The translations under genes were made by a program, and so were the position numbers. From positions 1 to 59,908 of the IMG/VR virus record IMGVR_UViG_3300004805_000007: a stretch of DNA of 59,908 nucleotides. One strand, written 5' to 3'. Below the pieces are notes generated by a model that was not told the DNA's origin, ran no database searches, and was given only the letters and a program-made list of their open reading frames with translations. Source of the DNA: a virus (Duplodnaviria; Caudoviricetes). Positions 1 to 55,616 of the stretch are shown here, piece after piece (within the stretch, counting starts at the first letter, position 1; every line of letters begins with the position of its first letter).

Positions 1-708
1 CCCCCACCCCCTGTCACGGTTGCTCCTCCAACTCCGGTAGCCCCCTCGCCTCCTTCGCCTGTAAATCCAATTACTATTCCTGATCTTGTTTCCCCAATGC
101 CTATCAAGCCCCCTGACGAGCGCCCTATCACGACTATGCCCGTAGCCGCCCAGCCTCTTGTCACGGTAGCTCCGCCCCCTACTTACACTACCCCTGATCT
201 TCTGCCTACTCCAGTAACTCCTCCTCCTACTACTGTAGCTCCTCCTCCTACTCCAGTAGCTCCTCCTCCTACTCCAGTAGCTCCTCCTCCTACTCCAGTA
301 GCTCCTCCAGCCCCCTTACCTATTCCGGGGGTCAGTGGTGAAGGAAAAAATAGTAGTGATGACATTCGAGCGGGCGGTGGAGACGAGGGCAACGGCTCGG
401 GGGCAGGAGTGCCAGTAAGCGAAATAACAGGGGGAACTCAACAAAGAGAAACTTTAAATCCAAATGCGCGGGATACAGTTGTTTCCACCGGATCTGTTGA
501 TCGCAATGGCAATGTGATTGGAGAAATTCCCGCAGTTGATCGTTTTGGCCGCACTATGTATGAAAAGTCTAATAGATTTTCAGATCACACGCTAAATGAT
601 CGAATGGAAATGATGGCGGACGGCGGTTTAGCTTCCACTAGCCATCTTTCCCCTGAAATACTACAAAAAGCAGGGATGCTAAGTAAAGGAATTAATCCTT
701 ACCAATGA
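1..708 (+). CDS. C-terminal part of a Pro-rich low-complexity protein (5'-truncated; probably continues the ORF at 59409-59908)
   Basis: Frame 1 is open from base 1 (PPPPVTVAPPTPVAP...) to TGA at 708; PVAPPPT repeats; MADGGL motif near the C-terminus. Confidence 0.7.
   Translation, partial: PPPPVTVAPPTPVAPSPPSPVNPITIPDLVSPMPIKPPDERPITTMPVAAQPLVTVAPPPTYTTPDLLPTPVTPPPTTVAPPPTPVAPPPTPVAPPPTPVAPPAPLPIPGVSGEGKNSSDDIRAGGGDEGNGSGAGVPVSEITGGTQQRETLNPNARDTVVSTGSVDRNGNVIGEIPAVDRFGRTMYEKSNRFSDHTLNDRMEMMADGGLASTSHLSPEILQKAGMLSKGINPYQ
211..309 (+). repeat. 21-bp tandem repeat, ~4.7 copies (CCAGTAGCTCCTCCTCCTACT = PVAPPPT)
   Basis: Units visible at 211, 232, 253, 274 and a partial unit at 295. Confidence 0.95.
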
Positions 709-1381
709 GGCGCTCAAACGCCTCTACCCTGCGCATCCACTTGTCTCCATAGGAATCAAACTCCCTGCCACAAGTCAGGAACTCTTGGGTTTGACCTTCT
801 TGTGAAACCATCATGATCACGCCCTGCCGGATCGACGTGCCGTGGACCTTGTTGTGCGCCATGGCATAAGCGGCCAACTGGATGAAGTAGTCCTCAATCC
901 ACTCGCGCTTCTTCATCTTGTTGGTCTGCTTAAAGTCAATGATTGACTCGTCAGACTTGTACACCCCAATGCAGTCAGAAGTGCCTGCATAGCGGCCCGG
1001 GTAATACAGCGGGATCTCCGCGCCCCATACCTCATTGACGTGCGGGAAGAACTCCTCAATCAGCTTGTAGCCCATCTGGTAGCCCTTGACTGCCTGCCAA
1101 GTCCTCGGGGCCGGTAGATCGCGGTTCAAGAGTAGGCGCTCAACTACGTTGTGCATATGGGTGCCAACAGTGGCTGCTTCATTCTTAATGCGCTCAGCCT
1201 GCTCCTCGCCAACCCGTGCTGCCCACTCCTTCAAGTGCGTCCTATCTTTGGTCTCCGACAAAATACTGGTTACGCTTGGCACACGCTCAGATTTGTCTAT
1301 TTCGTATACACGTCCGGATGACGTGTCTATTCTTTCGAGTTTTTTGTACACATAGCGCTTGCGGATGGGGATGAGTTGCAT
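692..1381 (-). CDS. PD-(D/E)xK exonuclease (phage exonuclease, MGME1/Cas4-like fold)
   Basis: PSVTSIL, GTHMH, E..L, YAGTSDC, IIDFKQ and QLAAYA motifs. Confidence 0.85.
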   Translation of the reverse strand: MQLIPIRKRYVYKKLERIDTSSGRVYEIDKSERVPSVTSILSETKDRTHLKEWAARVGEEQAERIKNEAATVGTHMHNVVERLLLNRDLPAPRTWQAVKGYQMGYKLIEEFFPHVNEVWGAEIPLYYPGRYAGTSDCIGVYKSDESIIDFKQTNKMKKREWIEDYFIQLAAYAMAHNKVHGTSIRQGVIMMVSQEGQTQEFLTCGREFDSYGDKWMRRVEAFERLIGKD

Positions 1382-21823: not shown

Positions 21824-21956
21824 GCTATGGGCGGCATGCCGCCCATAGCCTAAGCCTATCCCCCTATCGCGCACCGCGCCCCATAGCCGCAGGCTATGGG
21901 CTGTGGCCCTCCCTTGCCCGTTAGGGCCCCATGCGTGGCATGGGGGGAGGGCCACA
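21824..21956. repeat. Palindrome cluster including Y-shaped palindrome 2
   Basis: 26-bp perfect palindrome 21824-21849; CCCATAGCC-GCA-GGCTATGGG; 12-bp stem 21902-21913/21945-21956 with two ears. Confidence 0.85.
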
Positions 21957-22089
21957 AAGGTACCGTCAGCTTCAGCGCCAGCTTCGCCTCTGTTTTACAC
22001 CTGCACAACGGTATCTAGGACTTACGGAACCCACCCCCTTATTTTTAAAAAGGCAAGGGTGGGGGTATACTAAAAAAATTCAGAACTTT

Positions 22090-23571
22090 ATGAGTCTGCC
22101 CATGAGCCTCGCTCCACCGTCCGATGTAGAACACAAACGCCTCTTGCTAGAGCTGCGCCTCCAGCAAATCGATATCCGCGCTAAAGCATCCAATGAATTC
22201 CTAGAATTCTGTCGTTACGTCTGGCCGGAGATCATCATTGGTGAACACCACCGGCGTATCGCCAAGGCCCTTGATCGTGTAATCGAGGGCAAGTGCAAGC
22301 GGTTGATGGTTGCCATGCCCCCGCGCCACGGCAAGTCACAGATGGGCAGCTATCTGTTCCCCGCCTATCTGATGGGCAAGCTCCCTGCTTCTAAGCTTAT
22401 TGTTGGATCTCACACTGCCGAGTTGGCTCAGCGCTTTGGCCGGATGATCAGGAACCTTGTTGACGAGGACAAGTACAAGGAACTCTTCCCCGGCGTGGGC
22501 CTATCTGCTGACAGCAAGGCTGCTGGTCGGTGGAACACGAAGGGTGGTGGAGAAGCCTATTTCATTGGTAAGGGTGGCGCGATGACCGGGCGCGGCGGAG
22601 ACATTGTGATCTTGGACGATATCTTGGACGAGCAGGATGCTTTGTCAGAAACGGCTATGGAGAATACGTGGGAGTGGTATACCTCTGGCCCCCGTCAGCG
22701 GCTCCAGCCCAACGGCACGATCATCGTGATCAATACCCGTTGGAAGACCGATGACCTTACAGGACGCTTACTAAAGCAGCAGGGGCAGTTAAAGTCTGAT
22801 CAGTGGGAGATATTGGAATTTCCTGCCATTCTTCCTTCTGGCCGCGCTCTTTGGCCCGAGTATTGGAGCATAGATGAGCTAGAAAAGGTAAAAGTCAGCA
22901 TTGGCCTGAAGAAGTGGAACGCCCAGTGGCAGCAGCAGCCCACCAATGATGAGGGCGCTATTTTGAAGCGCGACTGGTGGCGCAAGTGGACGTATGATGA
23001 GCCCCCGGCCTGTGAGTACATTATCCAGTCGTACGATACGGCGTACTCCAAGAAGGAGACGGCGGACTACTCTGTTATCTCGACGTGGGGCGTATTCACT
23101 CCCAATGCCGACTCGGGGCCCAATCTCATCTTGCTCAACGTCAAGCGCGGGCGCTGGGATTTCCCTGAGCTTAAGCGCGTTGCGCGGGCCGAGTACCTTT
23201 ATTGGAATCCCGATAACGTCTTGATAGAGGCCAAGGCCACCGGAACGCCACTCCAGCAGGAACTCCGCAAGATAGGAATTCCTGTGACTATGTACTCCCC
23301 TGGTGGGCGGCGCACGGGCCAAGACAAGATATCCCGCGCCAATGCGGTAGCCCCTTTGTTGGAGTCGGGAATGATTTGGTATCCGCCTGATTTGGAGTGG
23401 GCACAAGAGATGGTGGAGGAGTGCGCTGCGTTTCCTAATGGCTCACATGATGATCAGGTGGATTCTGCTGTGATGGCTTGGAGCCGGTTCAGGGCTGGCA
23501 ACTTTATTGCTTTGGACTCGGACGAGAAAGATCCAGAATATGCAGACAGCGCGGTGATGGAGTACTATTGA
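22090..23571 (+). CDS. terL: Terminase large subunit
   Basis: MPPRHGKS Walker A, ILDD Walker B, TRW, nuclease domain SYDTA..ADYS and HDDQVDS; start moved downstream of the palindromes. Confidence 0.93.
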   Translation: MSLPMSLAPPSDVEHKRLLLELRLQQIDIRAKASNEFLEFCRYVWPEIIIGEHHRRIAKALDRVIEGKCKRLMVAMPPRHGKSQMGSYLFPAYLMGKLPASKLIVGSHTAELAQRFGRMIRNLVDEDKYKELFPGVGLSADSKAAGRWNTKGGGEAYFIGKGGAMTGRGGDIVILDDILDEQDALSETAMENTWEWYTSGPRQRLQPNGTIIVINTRWKTDDLTGRLLKQQGQLKSDQWEILEFPAILPSGRALWPEYWSIDELEKVKVSIGLKKWNAQWQQQPTNDEGAILKRDWWRKWTYDEPPACEYIIQSYDTAYSKKETADYSVISTWGVFTPNADSGPNLILLNVKRGRWDFPELKRVARAEYLYWNPDNVLIEAKATGTPLQQELRKIGIPVTMYSPGGRRTGQDKISRANAVAPLLESGMIWYPPDLEWAQEMVEECAAFPNGSHDDQVDSAVMAWSRFRAGNFIALDSDEKDPEYADSAVMEYY

Positions 23572-23636: not shown

Positions 23637-26600
23637 ATGGCTAACCCATCAGATCAAGAATTCATCAACCGCATCATGGATGCGGAAAGCAGTGGCCGTA
23701 GGTATGATAAGAATGGCAAGCTGCTGCAAGGTCCAAGGACCAAGCATGGTACTGCCAAGGGTGAGATGCAGGTTATCGATAAGACCAATCTTGATCCCGG
23801 CTTTGGGGTAACCCCGGCCAAGAACAAGTCTCCTGATGAGCGGGCCCGGGTGGGCAAGGATTATGCGCAGGCGATGTTGGATCGGTATGACAAGGATCGG
23901 CAAATTGCTGCCATGGCTTACAACTGGGGTCCGGGCAACGTGGACAAGTGGGTTGCTGGGGGAAAGAAAGGCGCTATCCCCGAGGAGACAGCAAATTATG
24001 TTGTCAGGGTGACGGGCTCCCCAATACAAACAGCCAAAAAGGCAGAGCCTACTCCTTCTTTCGCTGCCGCCGCCCCCGCTCCAGCAGCCACCGCTGGCGC
24101 TCCCAAACCTCCGGCTACGCCTCCTGTGAGGAAGGCAGAGGCTGCGCCGACCGAGGATATCAAATCGAGGATCGCGGCCCTCGGACCAAACTACCATGCC
24201 GCTATGGCGCTGTCCTATCTTGCAGACAACACCGATGAGGATGATCCGACGATACAGGCGTACAGGGAGCGCAATGAAGGCGGCAGTGATTGGTTGAGTC
24301 AGGAGTCAGCCCCTGTTGCTTTGGCCAGCGTGGACCTCAAAGCAAGCAGCCCGTTCCAAGAACCGGTGACCGCTGCCCGGGGTGGGTTGATCCATCGTGC
24401 GGGTGGATCGCCTGAGGAGGGAGAAGAAATTGCCAGTGATAGCGATACCATGGCAAGCAACACTGATCCTGAGACAGGTCGGGTTGTTACCACAAAGTAT
24501 GGTGAACAAACCCCGGTCTATTCTTTCCAAGGAAAAGATTACCCCGCTGCGCAAGGTGCTAATCTACCACCGTCACGTTCTAAGCAGGCTCTTGAGGCTT
24601 ATGTACAAGCAATGGTTCCTGATGCAAATGTACGGGAAAAATACCCTCTCAGTGATTCGGTCAGAGGATTTATAAGTCGGAAAGATCCCAGCACAATTAA
24701 TTTAAGTCCTATCCTTTCCCCCGGCTCACGCGAAGAAACTATGCTGCATGAAGCCGAGCATTCAATGGATGCCCGGGGTGGGGATTTGCTTGGTCGGCCA
24801 AATATTAAAGGCATGGACAACAACTACCGGGCGTATTACCTGATGGGAAGCCGGTGGGCCCCTATCAACATGACGGTTAAGAACATTGTGGACAACAAGG
24901 ATGAACTGGAACAGTTCTTTGGCCGTCCGTTAGACAACTCGTATTTCAGAAAAGAAACGTATACCAATGTTGCCAAGGATGGCGATCCGTCTGCTTTGTT
25001 TTCTGAACAGTTGGCAACTTTGTCGGCTTTGGAGCGGCAAACGGGAAAGTTTTTGACGCACGACCCTAAGATGCGTGAACTGATTTTCCCGTCAAACCCT
25101 TTGTACAACAACACCAGCATGATGGCGGTGTACGATGCGCTGACCGGGCCGCGCCAGACTCGCATGGATGCGCGGGACATGCCTCCCCATACCCCTGTTC
25201 CTTCTTACTTGTATGAAGAGCCGGGATCCATGACCCGTTTCTTTCGCAAGCACACAACTGGCCCAAATGAATACGGTATTCCCATCAAACGCGCCGATGG
25301 CTCCCCCGAGGAAGGGGAAGGTTCTCCTGAGTATTCTTTTATGGGGGTTCCTCGCACGGACAATGAGCATAAGCTTTACCCTAAAACCGAGCGCATGAAC
25401 CCTGTTGTCAAGGCGGTAAAGTCGGGAGTGGACACTTTCAACCGTTTTATTGATAGCGGACCATCAGTAGGTAACGTGGTAGGTGACGTAGTGGGGGCCA
25501 TACCTTTTGTTGGCCCAGACCTACGTAAAAGCATGGAAGAGTCCACCGTTACTTTGCCTACGAGGTATACACGTTCTCCCACAAATCCAAACGTGGCAGT
25601 AGGTGTTGAAACTTCTAAGGTTCCTGTAACTGACGCATTAAACAGCGTAAAGATGTCCGACCTTGTTGGCGGAACGGGAGTGAGCAATGTTCTGGGCAGT
25701 GTTGGCAAAGGGTATGCGCCTTCCCCGCTGGATGTTTTGGACACCGTAGGTGCTGGCGCTGTCGGCTACAAAGCGGCCAAGGCGGGTGTAAAAACTGCCA
25801 AAAAAGCTTCTGACATGTTGAAAGAATTAAAAACTCCAGCGCAAGTGGCCGCTAACATTGAGCCTGCACTGGATGCAGCAACTCCCGCCGCCGCATCCCT
25901 TTCTGCTATGGCTACCCAAAGGGGAGCTACGCCCACCCCATTTTTTAGCCCTTTGGATGCATACGCTCAAACGCTAACAGGCCCCGTTACCCCGGCTGAG
26001 TTTATTAAGCAAGTACAGAACAAGGGTTTCCGTGCATACGAGGTAGAGCGGGCAAAAGAAGCCATGCAAAAACTAGGCACGGGCCAAGTTTCTCGTTCCC
26101 AGATTTTGGATTCATTAGACGAAACTTACCATCCTGAAAACTTTATCACCAAAGTTGCAGAACCGGGAACCGTTGGATACACCCACCCCGAGGTAGATAA
26201 CGTGTTCAACGGAAGATACCCTTCTGATCCAGCGCTTTCGTGGACTATGGTCAATGGGAGAGGCAAAAGCCCTCCACAAGGCGTAATAAGCTTGCATCTT
26301 CCAGTTACGGATCAAATGCGGGAAGCTAGGCAAGTACAAATTGCTTTAGAAAACTTAAGAAGTTATAAATTGAGTTTAATCAACCCCAGTGTTACATCTA
26401 ACTCCGTAATGACATCAGCGGAAAAAGCAGCCAGTTTGATAGCGGATGTCCATGGGCAACGCAGTGAAGAAGCCCTTGATGCCATGGAATCTGTAGATCT
26501 TATACGCCGGAAACAAGAACAAATTGTTCCTTACTTAGAGCAAATTCCTGAATACTTAAAATTACAACAAGAATTTAAATATCCCATGGCAAAAGCAGAT

Positions 26601-27863: not shown

Positions 27864-27872
27864 GGACAGAAT

Positions 27873-30392: not shown

Positions 30393-30578
30393 ATGCTGGA
30401 ATTTGCAGAAGCGGTATTTGTTCAGATCAAACGGCTCCGTAAAGAGTCCCAAGAGATGATTTTGAATGGCCGTGTGCAGAATATGGAGCAATACAAGTTC
30501 ATGATGGGCCGGTTGGAAGGGTTTAACTTCGTTGAGGATGCTGTGCAAGAGATTCTCAAGAAAAATCCAAACCTTTAA
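30393..30578 (+). CDS. Hypothetical head-module protein
   Basis: SD AGGAG; EQYKFMMGRLEG pattern. Confidence 0.7.
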   Translation: MLEFAEAVFVQIKRLRKESQEMILNGRVQNMEQYKFMMGRLEGFNFVEDAVQEILKKNPNL

Positions 30579-30588
30579 GGATCTATTG

Positions 30589-34115: not shown

Positions 34116-34373
34116 ATGGACATTACATTTGTGGCTAAAGTTGATTTGTTTGATTTCCTTAGCTATTTTGGGGTTGAAGTTGAGGATGTTTTTGGTGATG
34201 AAGTTGAAGATGAGTTTGCTGACGAAGAGTATGTATATGATGATGAAGGCGTAGCGTATTGGTACGACGAAGAAAATGAAGTTTGGTACGCATACGACGA
34301 AGAGTCTGACGACTGGTACGAGTGCGAAGAAGTTGCGGAAGACGAAGCTGAAGAGGAAGAGTCCGCTGCTTAA
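34116..34373 (+). CDS. Highly acidic, aromatic-rich small protein
   Basis: About 36 of 85 residues are D/E, with one K; repeated [YW]x[YW]DEE. Confidence 0.7.
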   Translation: MDITFVAKVDLFDFLSYFGVEVEDVFGDEVEDEFADEEYVYDDEGVAYWYDEENEVWYAYDEESDDWYECEEVAEDEAEEEESAA

Positions 34374-34385: not shown

Positions 34386-34757
34386 CTACCCAGATTGGGA
34401 GGCTTTGGCCTCCTTTTTCTTTTGTCTTTCATTGTAGTGGTGTATGCGGTGGCAGTTTGAACACAGAACTATACATTTTGCCGCTTCTTTGTACGCTAGT
34501 TTGTACCGGCCGTTTTGGGCTAACTCATTAACGCTGTATTCTTTAGTATCCGGCGGGTGATGGAAATCTATACAGGCGGGGTGGTTAAACCCGCAATTTG
34601 AACAAGATAGACGGGCTTTGTAGTCTTTCCACTCCTTGCGTTTTTCCCTGCGACGATCATTGATACGGTTTTTTTCAGCCTCTTTGTTCCTTTCGTAGTA
34701 CTTTGCTGAGTATTCCTTGTGCTTTGCCTTGTGAACTTCTGGGTCTTTGAAGGGCAT
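34386..34757 (-). CDS. HNH endonuclease
   Basis: CSNCG...DFHH...KC.VLCSNCHRIHH. Confidence 0.85.
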   Translation of the reverse strand: MPFKDPEVHKAKHKEYSAKYYERNKEAEKNRINDRRREKRKEWKDYKARLSCSNCGFNHPACIDFHHPPDTKEYSVNELAQNGRYKLAYKEAAKCIVLCSNCHRIHHYNERQKKKEAKASQSG

Positions 34758-36547: not shown

Positions 36548-36733
36548 ATGAACGATGCACATGACGCAAAGACAATGGCTGATGGCGCTGCGGTAGTCAT
36601 GGGCCTTGGCGGTTTTTTAGGATGGATGACTCCCGTGGTAACACTTATTGGCGGCATCTTGACTATTGTGTGGCTAGGTATTCGTATTTGGGAAACCGAT
36701 ACGATACAGAAACTGGTAAAAACCGATGCCTAG
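36548..36733 (+). CDS. Small membrane protein (holin-like)
   Basis: Hydrophobic segment followed by IRIWETDT; start after GAGG. Confidence 0.6.
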   Translation: MNDAHDAKTMADGAAVVMGLGGFLGWMTPVVTLIGGILTIVWLGIRIWETDTIQKLVKTDA

Positions 36734-37175
36734 TAAGAGTAAAAAGCAGCACAACTTGATGGAAGCGGTGGCGCACAGCCCCGCTTTTGCCAAAAAGGTT
36801 GGTATCCCACAATCCGTGGGCCAAGATTTTTCTAAAGCGGACAAGGGCCGCAAATTTCAAAAAGGTGGCGATATGAAAGCAAAGATGAGCATGAAGAAGT
36901 TTGAAGCATCTTCTAAGGACATGGAAAAAGGCATGAAAGAAGGCTCCAAAAAAGACATGATGGCTGATAAAGAAGCCATGATGGGCTACAAAAAAGGTGG
37001 AATGCCTATGAAGATGAAAGATGGCCAAAAAGTGCCTGCTTTTTTAAATAAAGGCGGCGCAGCACTCCGTGGCCAAGGCATTGCCCAGCGCGGTTATGCC
37101 GGTGGCGGTAAGGTGTCTAGCGTACAAGTAAAAGGCATGGGTGCAGCACGCGCACGCACTGCAAAAATTTGCTAA
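36726..37175 (+). CDS. Basic K/M/G-rich protein with four xxxGG motifs
   Basis: MPSKSKKQHNLM.AVAH; FQKGG, YKKGG, LNKGG, YAGGG. Confidence 0.75.
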   Translation: MPSKSKKQHNLMEAVAHSPAFAKKVGIPQSVGQDFSKADKGRKFQKGGDMKAKMSMKKFEASSKDMEKGMKEGSKKDMMADKEAMMGYKKGGMPMKMKDGQKVPAFLNKGGAALRGQGIAQRGYAGGGKVSSVQVKGMGAARARTAKIC

Positions 37176-37178: not shown

Positions 37179-37853
37179 ATGACCACTTCGGGCGTAGCCA
37201 ACTTTGACCTGCAATTTGATGACTTAATTGCCGAGGCGTACGAACGCTGCGGCATAGAGGTCAGGGCAGGCTACGACATGAAGACCGCTTTGCGGTCTTT
37301 AAACCTGATTTTTGCTGAGTGGGCCAACCGAGGGCTTAATCTGTGGACGATTGAGCAGCGGACCGTGACCCTTGTGGCTGGGACAAACAACTACAACCTT
37401 CCCGATGACACCGTAAATGCCCTGTCAGCGGTCATTCGTACGGGAAGTGGATCCACGCAGCAAGACATCACGATTGATCGCATCAGCCGCGCTGAATACC
37501 TGCACATTCCCAACAAGAACACTCAGTCCCGGCCCGCCCAGTACTATGTACAGCGCTCTGTACCTACAACTTTGTACCTGTACCCTGCTCCCGATAGTAC
37601 GACTACCTACACCTTTGTGTATTACGCTGTTCGCCGGATCGACAATGCAGGCACTTACATCAATACGGCAGACATTGTTTTCCGTTTCCTCCCCGCTTTG
37701 GTTGCAGCGCTGGCGTACTACCTTGCTTTGAAGCGTGCACCTGAGCGCGTGCAGATGCTCAAGCAGTATTACGAAGAAGAGTTTGCCCGGGCTGCCATGG
37801 AGGACAGAGACACCGCCAGTGTGTTTTTGATACCTACTTTCACAGGTAGATAG
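37179..37853 (+). CDS. Putative head-tail adaptor
   Basis: EAYERCG, RSLNL..AEWANRGLNLWT, RP.QYY and RFLPAL motifs; position in the module. Confidence 0.65.
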   Translation: MTTSGVANFDLQFDDLIAEAYERCGIEVRAGYDMKTALRSLNLIFAEWANRGLNLWTIEQRTVTLVAGTNNYNLPDDTVNALSAVIRTGSGSTQQDITIDRISRAEYLHIPNKNTQSRPAQYYVQRSVPTTLYLYPAPDSTTTYTFVYYAVRRIDNAGTYINTADIVFRFLPALVAALAYYLALKRAPERVQMLKQYYEEEFARAAMEDRDTASVFLIPTFTGR

Positions 37854-37855: not shown

Positions 37856-38188
37856 ATGTCAGGCTTCGCTTCTGGTAAGTTTGCGATTGCCCTCTGTGAT
37901 CAGTGTGGGCAAAGGTACAAGCTGCTTGAGTTGATCCGAGATTGGAAAGGCTTTAAGGTCTGCGAAGAGTGTTACGAGCCTAAGCATCCGCAGTTGGAGC
38001 CCAAGCGCACAATTACAGAGCCGCAAGCCCTGTATCAACCCCGCCCAGAGTCTAAATTGCTTGTTACAATCTTTGTAGGGTTTACGGCGGATACTTCCTT
38101 CTCAAGTGTAGGTATGACTCCTATGCCTTATGCCAAACCGTTGGATGCAGCAGGACTTATGGGGCAAGTTGGGACACGAATAACATGA
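37856..38188 (+). CDS. Hypothetical protein with CxxC motifs
   Basis: CDQCG...VCEEC.EPKHPQL. Confidence 0.7.
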   Translation: MSGFASGKFAIALCDQCGQRYKLLELIRDWKGFKVCEECYEPKHPQLEPKRTITEPQALYQPRPESKLLVTIFVGFTADTSFSSVGMTPMPYAKPLDAAGLMGQVGTRIT

Positions 38189-38838
38189 CCTACACAGAAC
38201 TTTGCGCAGCAATTGCTGACTACACCCAGAATACGTTCACGGCAACGGAACTTTCTACGTTTACGAAGCAGGCAGAGCAGCGAATCTACAACACGGTGCA
38301 GCTTGCCAACTTGCGCAAGAACATGACGGGCACTGTTACGGCAAACAACAAGTATTTGTCGGCCCCAGATGACTTTTTGTCGGTCTATTCCCTTGCAATT
38401 TTCCCGTACGGGGGCGGCGATTACACCTACCTGTTGGATAAGGATGTCAACTTCATCCGGGAAGTCTACCCTTCGTCCACTACCACGGGCACGCCCAAGT
38501 ATTACGCCATTTTTGGACCACAGTCGAGCAATGTAACGGAGCTTTCCTTCATCCTCGGACCAACGCCAAGCACCACGTTCAGCGTGGAGTTGCATTACTA
38601 CTACTACCCCGAGTCTATCGTCACTGCTGGTACATCGTGGCTGGGCGATAACTTTGATTCGACCCTTCTTTATGGCTCCTTGGTCGAGGCATACACCTTT
38701 ATGAAGGGTGAGCAAGACTTGATGGGCGTTTACGATGCCAAGTACAAGGAAGCTTTATTGCTACTGAAGAACTTGGGCGATGGCAAGCAGCGGATGGACA
38801 CGTACCGCGATGGCCAAGTCAAGAATAAGGTGGCCTGA
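38185..38838 (+). CDS. Putative neck/tail adaptor protein
   Basis: MTY.EL..AI.DY, AEQRI, GTPKYY, GPTP, LLYGSLVEA. Confidence 0.65.
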   Translation: MTYTELCAAIADYTQNTFTATELSTFTKQAEQRIYNTVQLANLRKNMTGTVTANNKYLSAPDDFLSVYSLAIFPYGGGDYTYLLDKDVNFIREVYPSSTTTGTPKYYAIFGPQSSNVTELSFILGPTPSTTFSVELHYYYYPESIVTAGTSWLGDNFDSTLLYGSLVEAYTFMKGEQDLMGVYDAKYKEALLLLKNLGDGKQRMDTYRDGQVKNKVA

Positions 38839-40931: not shown

Positions 40932-43900
40932 ATGACGGTCAATTACACAACCAATCTAGCCCTCGGACAGCCGGTAACCGGCACAGAATCCGGTACATGG
41001 GGCGATGACGTAAACAACAGCGTTACGTCTTACTTGGACATTGCCATTGCTGGCGGCTTGTCGGTCTCTATCACCACGACAGACGTTACGCTCACGCTCA
41101 CACAGGGTACAAGCTCGGCAACTAACATCGGCTCGACCACGGCGCAGTACGCCATCCTGAACGTAAGCGGGGCAATGACCGCAGCGCGTAACTTGATCCT
41201 GCCTAGCAGCAGCCGTCAGTACGTCATCAACAACAATACCACTGGTGGGTTTGCCCTGACGGTTAAAGGCTCTGCTACCAGCGGCGTAACGATGGTCAAC
41301 GGCGAGAAGGCCCAAATATTTTGGAACGGCTCTGACTATGCCAAGCTATCCAACACACCGGGCGGCGCAGGAACATTTAGCTCCATCACCAACACCGGCC
41401 TGACATCGGGCCGTGTGGTGTACTCCACCACTGGTGGCCTTGAGACTGACTCTGCCAACCTTTTGTACAGCGGTACTGACCTGACTGTGTATGGCCTCAC
41501 CGTGGGCCGTGGTGCTGGTGCTGTGTCCACCAATACTGCGGTGGGGACTAGTGCTTTAAGTGCTAACACTACAGGTGCAAACAACACTGCTATAGGCTAT
41601 CAGTCTTTATTAAACAATACAGCCAACAACAATGCGGCTTATGGTTTTTCTTCATTAAAAGCCAACACATCTGGAACTCAAAATACAGGTATTGGACAGT
41701 CGGCTGGTTTTGGTACAACCACTGGAACAGATAATACCTTCCTTGGATTTACCACTGGTTATGCCAATACCACTGGCGCTCAAAATACTGCGCTTGGCTC
41801 CCAAGCCCTTGCGGCAAACACCACAGCCGCTAACAACACTGCTGTAGGTTATCAGGCTAGTTACAGTAATACAACGGGTACAGCAATAACTGCTGTAGGT
41901 CAAAGTGCGTTGTATTCAAATACTACAGCAGCATATAACACTGCTGTTGGTATGCGGGCTGCTTATACCAATACTATAGGTGCCGGTTTAGTTGCTATTG
42001 GGTATGGCGCTTTACAAAATAATACTACTGGATCTAATAACGTAGCAGTAGGTGGATATGATGGTAGCGCAGCACTTCCCCCGTTAAATTCCAATACTAC
42101 AGGTTCTTCTAATACTTCTGTAGGTAACGGTGCATTAACCTCCAACACCACAGCATCAGAAAACACTGCTGTAGGCTATACCGCTGGTTACGCCAACACA
42201 ACTGGCGTTCAGATTACCGCAGTTGGTTCTTATGCTTTAAGGTTAAACACAACTGGTAATTACAACTCGGCACTTGGTTCTGTTGCTTTGTACTCAAATA
42301 CAACTGGCGGAAACAATACAGCAATGGGTTACTACGCCCTTTACTTAAACACCACAGCATCTCAAAACACCGCCGTAGGTTATCAAGCTGCGTATAGTAA
42401 TACAACAGCAAATGGTATTGTAGCAATTGGTTCACTGGCTTTATACAGCAATACTACTGGTGCGGCTAACACTGCGGTGGGATCGTATTGGGGCGGAAAT
42501 ATTGAATCCCCTTTATACAGTAACACTACAGGTTCAGGTAATTCAGCTTTTGGGCCGGGAGCTTTAAAGTCCAACACTACTGGGTCTTCTAATGTTGGTA
42601 TTGGTGTTTATGCACTTGTCTCCAACACCACAGCATCAGGCAACGTTGCTATAGGTTATCAGGCGGGATACACAAATACCACTGGCAATCTTGTAGCCGT
42701 TGGTTATCAAGCTGGTTATGGAAACACCACCGGATACTCTAATAGTGCTTTTGGTGCTACAGCATTAAAAACAAATAGCACAGGTATAGCTAATACCGCA
42801 GTAGGTGAAGGTTCTTTATTTTCCAACACCACAGCAAACTACAACACTGCTGTAGGGTATCAAGCCGCTTACGCAAATACCACAGGAGATGGTAATGTTG
42901 CTCTTGGTTATGCGGCTCTTAAAGCAAATACCACGGGATTACAAAACACCGCGCTTGGCTATTTGGCGATGTATAGCAACACTACTGCTACTCAAGGGTT
43001 GGGTGTTGGCTCTCAGGCTTTATACAGCAATACAACAGGCGCTAACAATACAGCCGTTGGAGCGGCTTACGCTCTTTACTACAACACCACAGGATCCAAC
43101 AATACCGCAGTAGGTATGCAGGCTCTTGGAGCAAATACCACAGCCTCAAACAACACTGCTGTAGGTTATCAGGCGTTGTATTCCAACACCACCGGCGCTC
43201 AAAATACTGCTGTAGGATATCAGGCGGGGACTGCAAATACTACTGGTCAATACAATGTTCTGATTGGATATAGGGCTGGTGACGCTATTACTACAAACGG
43301 TGGGAATTGCATAGTAGGGCCGTTAGCGGGTATTGGTTCTACAGGGCAAGGCAATACATTTGTTGGAAATTTGGTTGTTGGTTCTACCAATGGTTGCGGA
43401 AGCTCAATGACCACAGGTTCCAAGAACACCATTATTGGTGGTTTCACCGGCAACCAAAGTAGCCTAGACATCCGCACAGCAAGCAACTACATCGTGCTGT
43501 CTGATGGGGATGGGAATCCACGGGCTTTTATAAATAACTCGGCCCAAGTTTTCTTTGACACGGTAACGGCTACAGCAACTGCTGGAGGAACATGCATCCT
43601 AGGCCCAACTTCAACAGGAAGTCCAAGAATTGCAACGGGCCATGCAACTGGGACTGCTGGAGGTAATGCGTATGCTCAATATATGCTTGCTGGAACAGAA
43701 ATTGGCTCTATTACTCAAAACGGGACAACAGGCGTTTTATATAACCTAACCTCTGACTATCGCCTGAAGAACAACCAACAACCTCTGACAGGCGCTAAAG
43801 AGTTTGTCATGGCCTTGCAGCCTAAAAAATGGCAATGGTGGGACGGCTCTGGTGAGGGCGTAGGCTTTGTTGCCCACGAGTTTATGGAGGTCGCCAAACA

Positions 43901-44069
43901 TTCAGGTCAAGGCAAAAAAGACGCTGTGGATGCCGACGGCAAGCCCGTTTACCAATCCATCCAGCCATCTTCATCTGAAGTAATGGCAAATCTTGTTTCT
44001 TTAATCCAAGAACAACAAGCCCTCATCACATCCCTGACCGCCCGTATCACGGCACTTGAATCAACCTAA
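40932..44069 (+). CDS. Tail fibre with ~14-aa beta-repeats and C-terminal intramolecular chaperone (peptidase S74-like)
   Basis: Dozens of NTAVGYQALYSNTT-like repeats; TSDYRLK, GFVAHE and a terminal coiled coil. Confidence 0.88.
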   Translation: MTVNYTTNLALGQPVTGTESGTWGDDVNNSVTSYLDIAIAGGLSVSITTTDVTLTLTQGTSSATNIGSTTAQYAILNVSGAMTAARNLILPSSSRQYVINNNTTGGFALTVKGSATSGVTMVNGEKAQIFWNGSDYAKLSNTPGGAGTFSSITNTGLTSGRVVYSTTGGLETDSANLLYSGTDLTVYGLTVGRGAGAVSTNTAVGTSALSANTTGANNTAIGYQSLLNNTANNNAAYGFSSLKANTSGTQNTGIGQSAGFGTTTGTDNTFLGFTTGYANTTGAQNTALGSQALAANTTAANNTAVGYQASYSNTTGTAITAVGQSALYSNTTAAYNTAVGMRAAYTNTIGAGLVAIGYGALQNNTTGSNNVAVGGYDGSAALPPLNSNTTGSSNTSVGNGALTSNTTASENTAVGYTAGYANTTGVQITAVGSYALRLNTTGNYNSALGSVALYSNTTGGNNTAMGYYALYLNTTASQNTAVGYQAAYSNTTANGIVAIGSLALYSNTTGAANTAVGSYWGGNIESPLYSNTTGSGNSAFGPGALKSNTTGSSNVGIGVYALVSNTTASGNVAIGYQAGYTNTTGNLVAVGYQAGYGNTTGYSNSAFGATALKTNSTGIANTAVGEGSLFSNTTANYNTAVGYQAAYANTTGDGNVALGYAALKANTTGLQNTALGYLAMYSNTTATQGLGVGSQALYSNTTGANNTAVGAAYALYYNTTGSNNTAVGMQALGANTTASNNTAVGYQALYSNTTGAQNTAVGYQAGTANTTGQYNVLIGYRAGDAITTNGGNCIVGPLAGIGSTGQGNTFVGNLVVGSTNGCGSSMTTGSKNTIIGGFTGNQSSLDIRTASNYIVLSDGDGNPRAFINNSAQVFFDTVTATATAGGTCILGPTSTGSPRIATGHATGTAGGNAYAQYMLAGTEIGSITQNGTTGVLYNLTSDYRLKNNQQPLTGAKEFVMALQPKKWQWWDGSGEGVGFVAHEFMEVAKHSGQGKKDAVDADGKPVYQSIQPSSSEVMANLVSLIQEQQALITSLTARITALEST

Positions 44070-48606: not shown

Positions 48607-50874
48607 ATGGCAACAGCACCAGATCAAGGGATCATGTCCCTACCCCAAGCGGAACAAGCTCCGCCGCCTCAATTAAGTCTTAATGAGTCTTATGGTGCGG
48701 TGCAGCAGGGCCTGCAAAATGCCAGCCCAGATGCATCCAAGGCAGTCAATGACACGTTGGACAAACTGGCCCCGATGCTCGATCAGTTGGATGATAAGAC
48801 ATTGGATATGCTCTTGCAGCTCATTCAGTACTTGATGGATCATGAGAAAGAGTACCCGCAACTAATTGCCCAGCTTGCTCAAAAGGGTGCATTCCCAGAA
48901 GGTACGTTTCCTGAGCAGTATGACCCTCAGTTCTTGTCCACTTTTGGCATGATGATCATGCACGCGCAACAAGCGCGTAGCGCGGCCCCCGCTCCTTCCC
49001 CCGAGATGACCCCTCCGGCGACCATGGCCCGGGGCGGCATTGCTGAAGCTGCGCGAACCGTGGCCCGTCAAGGACGGGGCCAAGACAGCATGTTGGCCCA
49101 CATCACTCCACGGGAAGCCAGTATCTTGCGCTCCCATGGCGGCATGGGCACGATGAACCCCAACACAGGCCTTCCAGAATTTGGTTTCTTTGATTTTGTA
49201 GGCGACTTCTTCAAAGGCGTGGGCGATGCAATTGGCAATGTAGTCAAGGGCGTAGTCAATGTCGTCAAAGACGTTGTATCCAGCCCCATTGGCAAGATAC
49301 TGGGAACTATTGCGTTGGCCACGTTCCTCGGCCCAGCAGGGATGGGGCTGGTTAGTTCAACGCTGGCTTTGCCCCTTGCTTCGGCAGGCGTAACACTGCT
49401 TGGCGGAGGAGATCTTAAAGATGCCCTGATCAGCGGCGCAACGGCCTATTTTGGCGCTCCGGGCGGCGTGGTTTCTGACTTTGTCGGCAGCTTTGGCGGC
49501 GTGATGACCAACACCGCTGTCAACGCAGCGGTATCCGCTGGCCTCGTAGGCACGGGCGCAGGCTTGCTACAAGGTAAATCCTTGGCCGATTCTGTCAAGA
49601 ATGGTTTGGTTGCTGGCGCGATTGGCGGCGGCATGGCGGCGTTGCCTTCCTTTACTGGAGGGCAGGGGAAAGTTGCCGAAACTAGTACTGGTCAGATGGG
49701 GGCCGAGGGAGCCAGTAACCCCTTAATTGCAAAAACAGGAACTCAAGATTTTGCTACCAATCTTTCCAATGATGGAAATCAAGTTGCGGCTTTACAAGGC
49801 CCGAATGGAGCTAATCAAGTTGTTGCTGCCGAAGTGCCTTTGCCTATAAGACCCGGGCAGCAAACTTCCGGGCCTTATCAAACTCCCCGCGATTTTCAAA
49901 TGCCCACAAGGCCCGGACAAGAAATGATGTCCATGCCAAATTCCGGGGCTGAAAATGTTCAAGGTGTAGCTGCTCCAGAGACTTTAAGTTCACCGACTCA
50001 AAGTAATGATTTCAAAATGCCCACAAGACCCGGGCAGCAGACTTCCGGGCCTGCCGAAGCTGGGACAAGCTTTATGGATAAAGCATCCGGCATGTTTGAT
50101 AAAGCAAAAGAGTTTTACAATGAAAATCTATCTCCGGCTGGTATTAAGCAGGCAGGGATGGGAGCGGCGGAAGAGGCAGGTAATGCAGCATTAAGCCGGT
50201 TGCCTGCAAATGCCCCTGATGCTCTTAGAACAGCGGCCTATCAAAAAGCCTATGACGCAGCCATGCCCGGTATGCTTCAAACATATGGCCCGTTGGCAGG
50301 GGCAGGTATTGCTGGCCTAGCCCTGACCGGTGGATTTGACGTAAAGCCCGTGCAACTCACCGCTGAACAGCAGGCTATGCAGGATCAAATAGCCGCTGAA
50401 AGGGCTGATCTGGCTGCAAATCCCGGTAAATGGTATAGCAAAAACCTAAAGGGGGTTACTTACGATAGTAGAGGAGTGCCGATTTCAAGTAAGCCCTACG
50501 ATCCTTCAGCGGGCCTGCCAAGCTCCTTGGTTCCCGCCACGCCTCGTCCATCCTATTTACCGGCTATGCAGCAGCCGTACAATACGTCAGCAGTCTCTTC
50601 CGACTTGAACCAGTACATGTACAAGCCGCCAGCTAAAAAAGCAATGGGCGGGGGCATCGGTTCTTTGGGCACTGGCGGTTATCCTCGCAAAACGGGGGCT
50701 ATTGCTGGACCGGGGACCGCGACTTCTGACTCCATACCGGCCATGTTGTCAGACGGTGAATTCGTTATGACGGCAAAAGCCGTACGTGGCGCAGGCAAAG
50801 GTAGCAGATTAGCTGGGGCGAAGAAGATGTACGCCCTTATGCACCAACTTGAGCGCAATGCGTCACGGAGTTAA
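48607..50874 (+). CDS. Putative ejection (internal virion) protein with membrane-prone Gly/Ala region
   Basis: MARGG + GRGQDSMLAHITPRE...NPNTGLPEF; hydrophobic G/A stretch; C-terminal GPGTATSDSIPAMLSDGEFV. Confidence 0.65.
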   Translation: MATAPDQGIMSLPQAEQAPPPQLSLNESYGAVQQGLQNASPDASKAVNDTLDKLAPMLDQLDDKTLDMLLQLIQYLMDHEKEYPQLIAQLAQKGAFPEGTFPEQYDPQFLSTFGMMIMHAQQARSAAPAPSPEMTPPATMARGGIAEAARTVARQGRGQDSMLAHITPREASILRSHGGMGTMNPNTGLPEFGFFDFVGDFFKGVGDAIGNVVKGVVNVVKDVVSSPIGKILGTIALATFLGPAGMGLVSSTLALPLASAGVTLLGGGDLKDALISGATAYFGAPGGVVSDFVGSFGGVMTNTAVNAAVSAGLVGTGAGLLQGKSLADSVKNGLVAGAIGGGMAALPSFTGGQGKVAETSTGQMGAEGASNPLIAKTGTQDFATNLSNDGNQVAALQGPNGANQVVAAEVPLPIRPGQQTSGPYQTPRDFQMPTRPGQEMMSMPNSGAENVQGVAAPETLSSPTQSNDFKMPTRPGQQTSGPAEAGTSFMDKASGMFDKAKEFYNENLSPAGIKQAGMGAAEEAGNAALSRLPANAPDALRTAAYQKAYDAAMPGMLQTYGPLAGAGIAGLALTGGFDVKPVQLTAEQQAMQDQIAAERADLAANPGKWYSKNLKGVTYDSRGVPISSKPYDPSAGLPSSLVPATPRPSYLPAMQQPYNTSAVSSDLNQYMYKPPAKKAMGGGIGSLGTGGYPRKTGAIAGPGTATSDSIPAMLSDGEFVMTAKAVRGAGKGSRLAGAKKMYALMHQLERNASRS

Positions 50875-52799: not shown

Positions 52800-52805
52800 G
52801 GAATC

Positions 52806-55616
52806 ATGATGAAAAACGATGTTTTAAAGCGGTCAATGTTTTCTACGCCTATGACCAAGGCGGCTAAGTCTTCAGGCATCATGGCCGGATTCAGTGATTC
52901 TGATATGCAGGATATGGCTCCGCCTGAGCAAGATACGATGCCTTCCATGGCCCGTACTCCTCAGAATCCAGAGATCCTGATGAACAACCTTCGCGGAGAC
53001 ATGCGCTCGATTGATGCCCGCCGCCAAGAGCTTGCTCTGATGGTTGGCGAGGACGCAGCAGATGAAACTCCTCCTGAAGTACTTGCAATGCTGCAAATGC
53101 AGCTTGGACAACAGCCGCAAGCACAGGGTATTGGCGCACTTCCCCAAAGCGCCGGTATGCAGCCTCCTCCCATGCCCGGGGCTCCCCCAACGGGTGCTGG
53201 TATGCCTCAAGGTGCTATGCCACCCGATCAAGGTGCTATGCCACCCCAAGGAGCCATGCCCCCGGGCATGGAGAGTGCTGGCCCTTTACCGCAGGGCGGT
53301 AGTCCCGCCCCACAAGGTTTTGCAGATGGCGGCTCAGTAAGCGGCGGCGGAAATATTGATTTGCACATCCCAATTGACATTGGCGGTGGAGCAGGGGGCA
53401 GCGGACAATTTGGAAATCTTCAAACCGACTTGCAGGGCGGTTACGGAGCAGGCGCTGGCCAACCTTCTCCTTTAATTTTCCCACAAGGGGGCGCAGGTCT
53501 TGGTGGCCTGTTTGGCCAATCCAATAATCAGTCTCAGGATGATTTTGTACAAAAACTTACGGAAGCATTGGGCAAACAACAGCCTATGCTTGGAGCTAAT
53601 AATCCATATCAACAACAGGTATTTGGGCTGCAACCGCAAGGGGCACAGGCGCAGCAGCCTGCCCCCTCAATGTTTTCCCATGGCGGTTCCGTAGAGCCGC
53701 CGACCTCGGACGGCATGCCTCCAATGCATGCGTTTATGGGCGCACTTGCAGCGCCTGCTACTCGCGCTGCTCAATTTATACAGGGCGTAGGAGCGCGGGC
53801 CGTGCCTTACTTACAGGAAGCCAATGCCGCACTGGGGCGCACATTTATGCAGCCCAGCATGACCCAGCCTTTCCTAGAAAATATTCGCGGAGCGGGCGGG
53901 CGCTACACGGCGGAACAAATCAACCGTGGCGGTGACCTAATTTATCCTACCCTGACGCAGGGTGTAGCTCAAGGCGCCTCAGCGTTGGCCAGCCAGTATC
54001 CAACGGCGGCGAAAGCTTTGGGGGCAGTGACAGCAGGTGCTGGTGCAATTGGTTCGGCCATGGGTTTATCGGGGGAAGAGTCAACTCCCTTGAGCCCCGA
54101 GGATCAAGCACGGTATGACCAGACGCAAGCAGCCATGGCAGAGGTCAATTCACCAATGAATACAGGAAAGAATCCGCGCTATAAGCAACCGGATTTTAAT
54201 CCCAAGGGCGTGGGGCCACGCAGCCAAGCGGCGCAAATGCTTCAGTATGAAAAAGCAAATGATACGCAAGATAGTAGCGTTGCCCGTGCTTTTACTGACA
54301 CCGATGTGCCCGAAAGCGATGTGTCTTCTTTTATCAATCAAAAACTAGCTGCAAGCGATGCAAAAGCAGCAGCGGGCGAAGGCGATACCACTCAGAAAGA
54401 CATCAAGGATGTGGCCCAGTCTCGTCTTGACCGCATAAAAAACCTTCGAGGTGATTATCAGGGTCTATACCGTGAACTGCTGGGTGGCGATAGCGAAGAT
54501 GCAAAGATGAATGCTTTGCTGCTTTTGTCCAATGCTGGATTTAAGTTTGCGGGCAGTAAAGCTCCCACCGCAGCCATGGCTTTAAGTGAAGCAGGCAGTG
54601 ATGTCGTCAAAGGCTTTGCATCCATCGTAGCTCAGCAACGTGAGCGTCAGTTAAAGGTGGATACCGCAGCGTTATCTCAAGCTATCACCGATGTAGATTC
54701 TCAAGACAAGTACGCTCAGGCCGTCAAACTTCAAATGCTCAAAGGTGATTACGAGCTTATTAAAGAAGAGTACAAAAATGGCGGAACCAAGCTTGAAGAT
54801 GCAGGCCTTGGTGGTCGTAATGCAATATCAAGACGTACCGGTAGTTTTGAAAAGTTTGGAATTGACCCCAATGATCCTGCCGTCACTTCTGCTATTACGA
54901 GCCCGTACACTCTAAACCCCACGGACAATCCTTTTGTCCGTAACATGGGCCAAGCGCCTACAGCGGTAGTGACTGATAAGGAAAGCCGATTGAAGCTGGG
55001 GCAAGCGTTGTCCGCAATTGACAACAACTTGAACACGATTGGCCAGATGAAGAACACCGTGGCAAATGCCTATTCTCCGGGCACATGGGTATCCAATAAG
55101 GTCAACAACATCTTTGTTCCTGTGAGCGGAGGCTTGCTTAAGCCTAACTTCAACACTGCCGATGCTGCTACCAAATTGCGCTCTGGATTTACTTCCGTGG
55201 CCAAGGGCTCCGCTGCTGCACAGGATACGGGACGTGTAGCCGTTCAACAACAAGAATGGGAGCAGAATAATCTTGCTGCCTTACAAGATCCAACAGCGTT
55301 CTTTAGCAACCCTGAAATTGCAGCAATAACGCTCAATTCTTTGGAGGCTACGCAGCGCAATGCACGTCAGTCTATCTTGACCCAGCTTGGGTACGAGAAG
55401 AACAACTATGTCATGGATACGCCCAATATCGGCACGAAGAACGATCCTTTTGTCATCCCAACTGACAAGGATTCCCAGCAATCGATGTTCACGTTCCTTG
55501 GAAGCACGATTGGTAAAACTACCAACCCGAACGCTTTGATCTACCTTAAGATGCCAAATGGGAATGTCAATGCGTTCAAGCCTGCACAACTGCAAGGTCT
55601 CATGGGGACTAAATAA
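52806..55616 (+). CDS. Putative ejection protein
   Basis: Low-complexity N-half with FADGG and FSHGG; helical C-half. Confidence 0.6.
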   Translation: MMKNDVLKRSMFSTPMTKAAKSSGIMAGFSDSDMQDMAPPEQDTMPSMARTPQNPEILMNNLRGDMRSIDARRQELALMVGEDAADETPPEVLAMLQMQLGQQPQAQGIGALPQSAGMQPPPMPGAPPTGAGMPQGAMPPDQGAMPPQGAMPPGMESAGPLPQGGSPAPQGFADGGSVSGGGNIDLHIPIDIGGGAGGSGQFGNLQTDLQGGYGAGAGQPSPLIFPQGGAGLGGLFGQSNNQSQDDFVQKLTEALGKQQPMLGANNPYQQQVFGLQPQGAQAQQPAPSMFSHGGSVEPPTSDGMPPMHAFMGALAAPATRAAQFIQGVGARAVPYLQEANAALGRTFMQPSMTQPFLENIRGAGGRYTAEQINRGGDLIYPTLTQGVAQGASALASQYPTAAKALGAVTAGAGAIGSAMGLSGEESTPLSPEDQARYDQTQAAMAEVNSPMNTGKNPRYKQPDFNPKGVGPRSQAAQMLQYEKANDTQDSSVARAFTDTDVPESDVSSFINQKLAASDAKAAAGEGDTTQKDIKDVAQSRLDRIKNLRGDYQGLYRELLGGDSEDAKMNALLLLSNAGFKFAGSKAPTAAMALSEAGSDVVKGFASIVAQQRERQLKVDTAALSQAITDVDSQDKYAQAVKLQMLKGDYELIKEEYKNGGTKLEDAGLGGRNAISRRTGSFEKFGIDPNDPAVTSAITSPYTLNPTDNPFVRNMGQAPTAVVTDKESRLKLGQALSAIDNNLNTIGQMKNTVANAYSPGTWVSNKVNNIFVPVSGGLLKPNFNTADAATKLRSGFTSVAKGSAAAQDTGRVAVQQQEWEQNNLAALQDPTAFFSNPEIAAITLNSLEATQRNARQSILTQLGYEKNNYVMDTPNIGTKNDPFVIPTDKDSQQSMFTFLGSTIGKTTNPNALIYLKMPNGNVNAFKPAQLQGLMGTK

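Follow-up and report, generated by a model that had tools for sequence, protein, structure and literature searches.

A double-glycine motif at the module ends of putative ejected proteins in a podovirus-like phage

The T4 capsid targeting sequence is an N-terminal peptide that binds the scaffolding core and is cut off by a dedicated prohead protease. Double-glycine sites, as in ubiquitin-like tails, bacteriocin leaders and the sites of the adenovirus and African swine fever virus (ASFV) proteases, are cut after the GG by cysteine or JAB proteases. Tape measure proteins (TMPs) assemble in tails, not heads. The TMP of phage T5, pb2, was found by mass spectrometry to be cut after R1127 (PMC10038345). 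According to a 2025 Ur-lambda paper, a piece of about 14 kDa is cut from the Gly-rich C-terminal region of gpH, at a site and by a catalyst that are stated to be unknown (PMC12617516). Iyer et al. (2017) predicted that polyvalent proteins are processed by their own zincin-like peptidase domains (PMC5512222). Here we describe a short double-glycine motif that recurs in several proteins of a tailed phage. The DNA analysed (the window) is 59,908 bases long and is the entire IMG/VR virus record IMGVR_UViG_3300004805_000007, with a completeness estimate of 97%. On sequence comparison the motif is real, is under selection at the protein level, sits at module ends and is common to proteins that would leave the particle via the tail. 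We tentatively read it as a processing or module-release signal.

Like the capsid targeting sequence of T4 and the propeptides found on ejection proteins of giant phages, the motif would be a short peptide address for cargo bound for the particle, and it would be tied to a maturation cleavage. It differs from the T4 signal in being internal or C-terminal and in occurring also in tail proteins, and no prohead protease was seen in about 30 open reading frames (ORFs) scanned. The window's motifs do not take the T4 form of an N-terminal leader that a prohead protease cuts off. Because motif-bearing tape measure proteins assemble in tails, targeting to the capsid is unlikely to be all that the motif does. 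With double-glycine sites the motif shares the Gly pair and a hydrophobic residue a few positions upstream. It differs in that the sole cut mapped at the motif, R1127|A1128 in T5 pb2, lies three residues before the GG; judged by that cut the scissile bond does not follow the GG, and no gene for a double-glycine-type protease was seen in the ORFs scanned.

The likeness to tape measure maturation (T5 pb2 to pb2* and pb2C, lambda gpH to gpH* and gpHC) lies in the GEFV module, which is common to a 755-amino-acid (755-aa) protein of the window and many annotated TMPs. The T5 and lambda cuts both lie downstream of a hydrophobic or Gly-rich stretch. The window differs from the TMP systems in having SU10-type adaptors and no tape-measure context (no tail-tube search was made), and in that the motif has spread to several other proteins of the same phage.

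Definition of the motif and selection on the peptide

The initial annotation of the window had proposed that a motif [FYMLAK]xxGG punctuates five putative virion or ejection proteins. All twelve peptides that it listed, and two RAxGSPEEGE variants, are in frame where they were claimed to be, in five ORFs of the plus strand. MADGGL (613) lies in the 5'-open ORF 1-708. AARGGL (24372), FRHGGS (27807) and the variants RAGGSPEEGE (about 24396) and RADGSPEEGE (25290) lie in a 1408-aa protein encoded beside the portal gene (23637-27863). FQKGG (36855), YKKGG (36987), LNKGG (37044) and YAGGG (37095) lie in a 149-aa protein (36726-37175), MARGGI (49024), KAMGG (about 50638) and LGTGG (50665) in the 755-aa protein (48607-50874), and FADGGS (53319) and FSHGGS (53673) in a 936-aa protein (52806-55616).

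As originally written, the pattern does not stand out from chance. It was seen 41 times in 49 chosen ORFs, where shuffling within each protein predicts 44.3 +/- 6.3 (p = 0.72); with a larger set of 72 greedy ORFs the expectation was 45.9 for the same 41, and the pattern was enriched in none of five proteomes (the window, DSL-LC04, G002, L004 and L005). DSL-LC04, a metagenome-assembled phage (PMC10611076), is the nearest named relative, and related viral contigs number in the hundreds. The loose pattern amounts to any Gly-Gly with one-in-three odds at position -3. The narrower [FYM]xxGGx[VIA] had a modest proteome-wide excess in the window (6 vs 2.7 expected, p = 0.056), DSL-LC04 (10 vs 3.4, p = 0.0005) and L004 (5 vs 1.6, p = 0.019), and none that was significant in G002 or L005. 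The true signal is family-specific.

The tight core consists of a bulky residue (F/Y/M/L/R/K/H), Ala, any residue, Gly, Gly, any residue and Val/Ile/Ala, often continued by E/x-R. Ala is nearly constant at position -2, although it lay outside the search pattern. Among 36 portal-adjacent proteins, taken from complete, distinct relatives, [FYMLRKHIV]A.GG.[VIA] occurs 73 times against 2.8 expected, a 26-fold enrichment in copies that are non-independent events, since the proteins are mutually related. Register controls in the same proteins were at chance (A..GG 21 vs 35, GG.A 36 vs 35). Counted by family, relatives that have the strict pattern number 65 of 67 for the 755-aa protein and 29 of 72 for the 936-aa protein. 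The pattern is present in 0 of 68 relatives of a Gly-rich (13% Gly) 640-aa protein, 0 of 68 relatives of a 1138-aa protein and 2 of 62 relatives of a 690-aa tail protein.

Three versions of the motif are seen, namely the bare one, a composite junction (..GGxVxR-A-[DE]-G-S-P-E-E-G-E) and an 18-residue C-terminal tag (..GGxVERQxxDNRRYL). In portal-adjacent proteins two flavours, ..[FYM]A[DE]GGxV.. and ..R-A-[DEGN]-G-S-P-E-E-G-E, recur and are frequently fused, and the RAxGSPEEGE variants are part of the same system as the GG motif. The portal also contains an MDAGG, which is not counted as a motif; it lies in a different register within an invariant block (D420, G422, G423) of a 76%-identical alignment.

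One explanation for such a pattern is composition, in that Gly-rich, low-complexity proteins would yield xxGG accidentally. It suits the loose pattern, which is at chance, and the peptides LNKGG and KAMGG, which are poor fits to the tight core. For the tight motif it is already refuted by the 26-fold enrichment with register controls at chance, the lack of a single copy in the 13%-Gly 640-aa family, and columns that are invariant in alignments down to 40% identity, so that we give it almost no credence. An explanation at the level of DNA, in which the sites are linkers for homologous recombination between modules and the peptide is a by-product, is hardly more credible. Module shuffling is indeed visible at motif positions. 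Across 125 copies, however, all four codons are used at Ala (45/33/24/23), at both Gly and at Val, and copies of the motif inside one genome differ in DNA sequence. Selection acts on the peptide and not on the DNA, because the full synonymous spread is seen at Ala, both Gly and Val.

Module ends in the portal-adjacent protein

The 1408-aa protein (23637-27863, +) is a multi-domain protein of polyvalent type, encoded in the interval between the large terminase and the portal. An SLT lytic transglycosylase domain covers residues 5-111 (Pfam, 5e-8), and the N-terminus also matches PHROGs of 'virion structural protein' and endolysin type. A zincin-like module, further modules and a C-terminal tag follow. 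Module 1 ends at a composite junction, AARGGLIHRAGGSPEEGEE (residues 246-264; 24372-24428, +), of which AARGGL and RAGGSPEEGE are the two halves; the junction is conserved in the relatives L016 and L017. The zincin-like module ends at a second junction, KRADGSPEEGEG (residues 551-562; 25287-25322, +). This aligns to ...RA[DEG]GG.PVYRA[DE]GSPEEGE in fused relatives and to the tag F-A-[DG]-G-G-A-V-E-R-Q... in relatives that encode the module as an ORF of its own. The protein ends with the tag itself, FRHGGSVERQSDDNRRYL (27807-27860, +), which reads GG.[VIM][ED][RK]...RRY[LIM]-stop in relatives. A single portal-adjacent protein can hold up to ten copies of the motif (L089).

Several results place the motif between modules. 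When the window's 1408-aa protein was compared with its relatives by BLAST, matches broke off at residues 241-280 and 555-598, which lie at the two junctions or shortly past them. Among the 36 portal-adjacent proteins, 179 of 1017 internal match ends fell within 15 aa of a motif against 64 expected, and none of 2000 simulations was as high; the match ends are mutually dependent, and a shared motif can by itself lengthen a BLAST match. An AlphaFold2 (AF2) model of residues 236-600 has a core with a pLDDT of 75-97, and both junction elements lie in flanks below 50. The initial annotation had put its peptides at low-complexity or domain junctions and near C-termini. Once the motif is tightened this placement holds, in disordered linkers, at module junctions and at the C-termini of otherwise unrelated virion proteins.

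The modules between the motifs are also exchangeable, as had been proposed. They have been swapped between close relatives, or are encoded as separate ORFs that each carry the motif as a C-terminal tag. L016 and the window have portals that are 98% identical; the first 263 residues of their portal-adjacent proteins are 90% identical and the C-terminal halves 48%, and the protein of L016 does not have the zincin-like module. This suggests a recent module exchange.

The tag ends the ORF immediately before the portal in 63 of 73 relatives, 50 with a strict A.GG and 13 with F-x-x-GG-x-VER. In an alignment of 44 tags both Gly are present in every row and are the sole invariant residues; the E, the two R and the Y are at least 90% conserved, and the sequences preceding the tag are wholly different among relatives. 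Where the gene is split, the tag also ends four of five upstream ORFs. The portal is in frame with the upstream tagged ORF (27861-27875). The stop codon is TAA in all 73 loci, and in 62 of 73 it is followed by a 9-nt gap that starts with GGA. Stop-codon read-through joining the tagged protein to the portal was considered and rejected on the TAA stop and the GGA-start gap. TAAGGA reads as a ribosome-binding site, and the arrangement looks like ordinary, tight translational coupling.

These properties of the tag bear on a rival to processing, which is that the motif serves docking or co-assembly and that cleavage is not obligatory. A hairpin with a Gly-Gly turn would add to a common partner and so recruit or bundle the ejected proteins, and the C-terminal tag would be an address label needed by every separately encoded module. 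The GEFV module of the tape-measure-like protein, the portal, the capsid interior and a tail-hub protein are candidate partners. We regard docking as possible and only slightly less likely than processing. It would explain why the tag is found on both ORFs of a split gene and why the tagged gene is translationally coupled to the portal, and the conservation reaches well beyond the Gly pair (x-V-E-R....RRYL), as in a binding peptide. Against it, the tag is missing from the other 10 of 73 relatives, and the flanks of the motif are both acidic and basic, so that no single electrostatic interface is evident. A complex prediction of the portal with a 45-residue tag scored 0.00 and has no bearing on whether the two bind.

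The zincin-like module (about residues 295-512) bears on the processing reading, and on which protease might serve it. Its putative zinc-binding motif, HEAEH, lies at 24747-24761 (+). All 18 sequences of the alignment keep the H, E, E and H of HExEH unchanged, as well as an EQ.A.L...E block further downstream. No Pfam family matched the module, and a fold search gave no PDB match at E <= 0.001 and one BFVD match; at the top of both match lists, weak as the matches are, stand mostly zincin peptidases and phage proteins with the names 'large polyvalent protein associated domain', 'PolyVal metallopeptidase' and 'MuF'. The module occurs in 20 of 224 upstream ORFs, and many relatives do not have it. 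Where it is a separate ORF, the start lies about 12 aa past the position of the upstream junction and the tag lies at the end, where fused proteins carry the junction motif. The zincin-like profile had no match in the complete genome of DSL-LC04. In G007, a 100% complete relative whose portal-adjacent protein (L078) has six motif copies, the profile matches the junction part only. The module was rejected as a universal protease, being missing from complete motif-bearing relatives; it is a candidate protease solely where it is present.

In its domain content and location the 1408-aa protein seems to fit the polyvalent proteins of Iyer et al. Like them it is large, is encoded beside the portal and terminase genes, and combines a peptidoglycan-cleaving domain and a zincin-like metallopeptidase-type module with other modules in variable order (PMC5512222). 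It has at least two unrelated domains (SLT, zincin-like and others), whose order varies among relatives with portals 70-99% identical. It differs from the class in that a Pfam scan of the 1408-aa protein found no MuF domain. The main text of the polyvalent paper describes neither a boundary motif nor a tag, and the words 'linker' and 'glycine' each occur 0 times in it (PMC5512222).

The GEFV module and tape measure cleavage

The 755-aa protein (48607-50874, +) is a tape-measure-like internal protein. Its residues 675-741 match six PHROGs annotated as tape measure or unknown, the best at 6e-10, with tape measure PHROGs ranging from 6e-10 to 4e-5; its membership of the tape measure family by sequence holds for this C-terminal module alone. 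A total of 405 homologues were found, and all 120 that are listed have at least one motif copy. AF2 predicts helical domains, hydrophobic helices at 190-300 and disordered linkers, and both motif regions have low confidence despite their invariance. The neighbouring genes encode a lysozyme, the 690-aa protein (whose DSL-LC04 counterpart is named 'stabilization protein') and internal proteins.

The first motif region (49024-49182, +) is MARGGIAE, followed by a conserved GRGxDxMLAHITPxEA...NPxTGLPEF block, with a pLDDT of about 50. All 63 aligned sequences share A141, G143, G144, I145 and A146, the motif at this position is present in 30 of 30 homologues among the matches listed, and relatives read FAKGGIAE or FAQGGIAE. 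By eye, the block GRGxDxMLAHITPxEAxxL...GGxGTxNPxTGLPEF (49072-49182, +; pLDDT about 50) looks like a diverged second motif-plus-GEFV module (DSMLAHITPREASIL compared with DSIPAMLSDGEFVMT).

The second region (50641-50784, +) is the motif-plus-GEFV module, AMGGGIGSLGTGGYPRKTG plus GPGTATSDSIPAMLSDGEFVMTAKAV, which is common to tape measure proteins. A tblastn search with the last 87 aa of the protein found 628 phage records, from phages of Gordonia, Mycobacterium, Vibrio, Pseudomonas, Burkholderia and others; in nearly every case the annotation is that of a tape measure protein. No Pfam family matched the module, even at E <= 10. In nine of ten proteins examined, five of which were hand-picked for host diversity from a list of 60 of the 628 and are thus non-random, GPGT..SDSIPA.LS.GE[FY]V is immediately preceded by the motif, which usually recurs 30-50 aa further on. 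The nine are those of the window, DSL-LC04, V-YDF132, B3, BPs (with the variant FAGG), GTE6, Burkholderia PhiBt-E264.1, KcrB and lambda; the window's protein stops short of any downstream copy. The exception is gp72 of HTVC115P, a cultured Pelagibacter podophage, in which the motif is not adjacent to the module. This protein, encoded beside the portal, has the GEFV module and four motif copies, and the 45-aa basic gp73 has two. By this comparison, the GPGT-TSDSIPA-LSxGEFV module near tape measure C-termini is bracketed by the same motif as is found in the window's proteins.

The initial annotation had pointed to FATGG and YATGG motifs around a GEFV segment in lambda gpH and a cleavage near the C-terminus of that protein. 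Both points hold: FATGG (733-737) and YATGG (778-782) flank GEFV, and the cut is near the C-terminus (PMC12617516). A cut at F733|A734 was computed to give pieces of 79.8 and 12.5 kDa, against the fragment of about 14 kDa in that paper. The T5 sequence at the mapped cut is NSFVPR|AEGGMMYPG, so that pb2 is cut before A-x-G-G, three residues ahead of the GG. The pattern [FYMLRKHIV]A.GG has two sites in the 1219 residues of pb2, one of them at the mapped cut, so the chance of hitting the exact bond is about 2 in 1218. A GEFV-module profile does not find T5 pb2C (E = 0.55) and finds lambda weakly (E = 0.003, two-sequence search). Homology of pb2C to the GEFV module is not supported at that E-value; because the profile misses pb2C, the link to T5 is made by the short motif.

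On this evidence we favour, tentatively and as somewhat short of probable, the reading of the motif as a processing or module-release signal. The proteins concerned (the portal-adjacent multi-domain protein, the tape-measure-like 755-aa protein, the 936-aa protein and the small basic protein) are most likely carried in the particle and ejected. The motif would lie in a disordered linker at the end of each module, and the modules would be cut apart at it during particle maturation or after ejection. The cut would fall just ahead of the Ala, as in T5 pb2 R1127|AEGG; for the window's proteins, cleavage at the motif is inferred from the T5 cut in the literature. Four things put processing first: the T5 cut, the equivalence of junction and tag in split genes, the disorder around the motif, and what had been predicted for polyvalent proteins.

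A number of points weigh against processing. The one named relative, DSL-LC04, is known from a metagenome assembly (PMC10611076). The zincin-like module is missing from complete motif-bearing phages, so that no universal phage protease is in sight. Pfam, PHROG and NCBIfam scans of about 30 ORFs, a part of all ORFs, found no prohead protease. Ahead of the Ala stand residues from aromatic to basic, an odd breadth if a single protease is at work. Chopping basic proteins of 45-149 aa with two to four copies into short peptides makes little sense, and a cut at the extreme C-terminal tag would free just about 17 residues. The T5 match is based on a 7-residue pattern, in a protein whose pb2C the GEFV profile misses. 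Docking, too, could produce such a cut, if the T5 protease had trimmed the chain up to the border of a segment that was bound.

Docking draws further support from the same proteins. The tiny basic proteins with two to four copies suit it, and the motif regions are invariant yet unmodelled in AF2 monomers, which is typical of segments that fold on binding. The GEFV module was present in all five motif-bearing phages checked (the window, DSL-LC04, HTVC115P, lambda and KcrB), phages that were found via that module. The T5 cut could be the mere edge of a bound, protected segment. Weighing on the other side, a partner in the head cannot account for all occurrences of the motif, as tape measure proteins assemble in tails.

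The two readings can be joined if the motif and the tail downstream of it first hold the module in the assembling particle and are then clipped, like the T4 capsid targeting sequence. This pools the evidence for processing and for docking, and it agrees with the fate of the T5 and lambda fragments: once cut off, pb2C stays behind in the tail, in the cup of the hub (PMC10038345), and gpHC remains with gpI after the cut (PMC12617516). It requires both of the putative steps and a protease that is hypothetical so far, and we think it rather improbable. More generally, Bulky|A-x-G-G-x-V could be a 'module terminator' code of tailed phages that holds and then cuts proteins travelling through the tail, with the GEFV module as its reader or cis-acting partner. 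Such a code, which we put forward as a speculation with a small chance of being right, would extend over siphovirus tape measure proteins and the internal or polyvalent cargo proteins of podoviruses. If true, it would set the lambda gpH site at F733|A734, and it would explain the free swapping of cargo, each module bringing its own terminator.

Other carriers, gene context and meaning

The 149-aa protein (36726-37175, +) is basic and has a conserved N-terminal domain; its residues 1-50 match PHROG 16759 (2e-20) and PHROGs 22033 and 25121 ('virion structural protein'). Its four copies are FQKGGDM (36855), YKKGGMP (36987), LNKGGAA (37044) and YAGGGKV (37095). Of 12 homologues, 11 retain three of the motif positions, and a 19-aa insertion holds the window's fourth copy. 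This insertion, MPMKMKDGQKVPAFLNKGG (37008-37064, +), resembles a unit, ..GGMPMAMKDGKKVPAF.., of small separate ORFs in L101 and L107.

The 936-aa protein (52806-55616, +) is an internal protein with LPQGGSP at 53286, FADGGSV at 53319 and FSHGGSVEPPTSDGMPPMHAF at 53673. FADGGSV aligns to FAYGGEV, YAHGGAV and YAYGGLV ([FY]A[YHD]GGxV) in relatives, amid a variable Pro/Gln-rich linker, and further relatives, outside the strict count of 29 of 72, have F-[PS]-Q-G-G-A-E at the same position. A Gly-rich insertion of about 110 aa specific to the window (53340-53672, +) lies between FADGGSV and FSHGGSV, and the arrangement looks as if the motif had been duplicated along with it. Profile searches of solved structures with alignments of the motif regions of the 936-aa and 755-aa proteins gave chance-level matches (E >= 0.3). 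The ESM Atlas returned viral clusters without names, and a crAss cargo match at 0.78, which is below a usable level. A possible likeness of the motif to the mobile loop of GroES (GGIVL) and to the peptides that load cargo into encapsulins (GSLGIGSL) carries no weight in the readings given here.

At the 5' end of the record, MADGGLA (613-633, +) lies near the C-terminus of the 5'-open, Pro-rich ORF 1-708, in frame and in agreement with the consensus; no homologue of this ORF was found among 79 related loci. Pro-rich ORFs are open at both ends of the record, 59409-59906 (PPPFVPF..., 3' end, +) and 1-708 (PPPPVTVAPP..., 5' end, +), and they may be a single gene divided by linearisation of the contig.

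The gene order starts with replication genes, followed by the large terminase (21931-23571), the 1408-aa protein and the portal (27873-30212, +), which is translationally coupled to the tagged protein upstream. After the portal come a GroES-like gene, scaffold-like and capsid genes, two paralogous SU10-type adaptors, fibres and a lysozyme, and the large internal proteins of 755, 640, 936 and 1138 aa are encoded in one run. The SU10-type adaptors suggest a podovirus-like morphology.

Some of these genes were seen in passing. The GroES-like gene (30532-31062, +), between the portal and the scaffold-like gene, matches Pfam Cpn10 (3e-9) and a PHROG for co-chaperonin (2e-18); it has an N-terminal coiled-coil extension of about 70 aa and a DSL-LC04 counterpart at the same position. 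Within the structural gene block an extremely acidic, Asp/Glu-rich ORF of 85 aa (34116-34373, +) is followed on the opposite strand by a basic, Cys/His-rich ORF of 123 aa (34386-34757, -). The adaptor paralogues (37179-37853 and 38185-38838, +) match Pfam PF24175 at 4e-16 and 2e-24. A fibre of 1045 aa (40932-44069, +) has long NTT/ANTTG-type repeats and a C-terminal endosialidase-chaperone (Peptidase_S74) domain.

Tape measure cleavage, polyvalent proteins and capsid-targeting peptides are already known. In the searchable phage literature, figures and supplements lying outside the search, no description was found of the boundary motif that links all three, of the C-terminal tag or of the motif-GEFV-motif module.

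The loading, ordering and release of podovirus internal ejection proteins, and the maturation of tape measure proteins, are poorly understood. For lambda gpH, the motif gives a sharp prediction of the cleavage site that the 2025 structural paper states to be unknown (PMC12617516). Should the motif prove to be a boundary or address signal that can be moved between proteins, it could be used to load foreign cargo into phage particles, and in metagenomic phage genomes it would point to effector proteins that are ejected.

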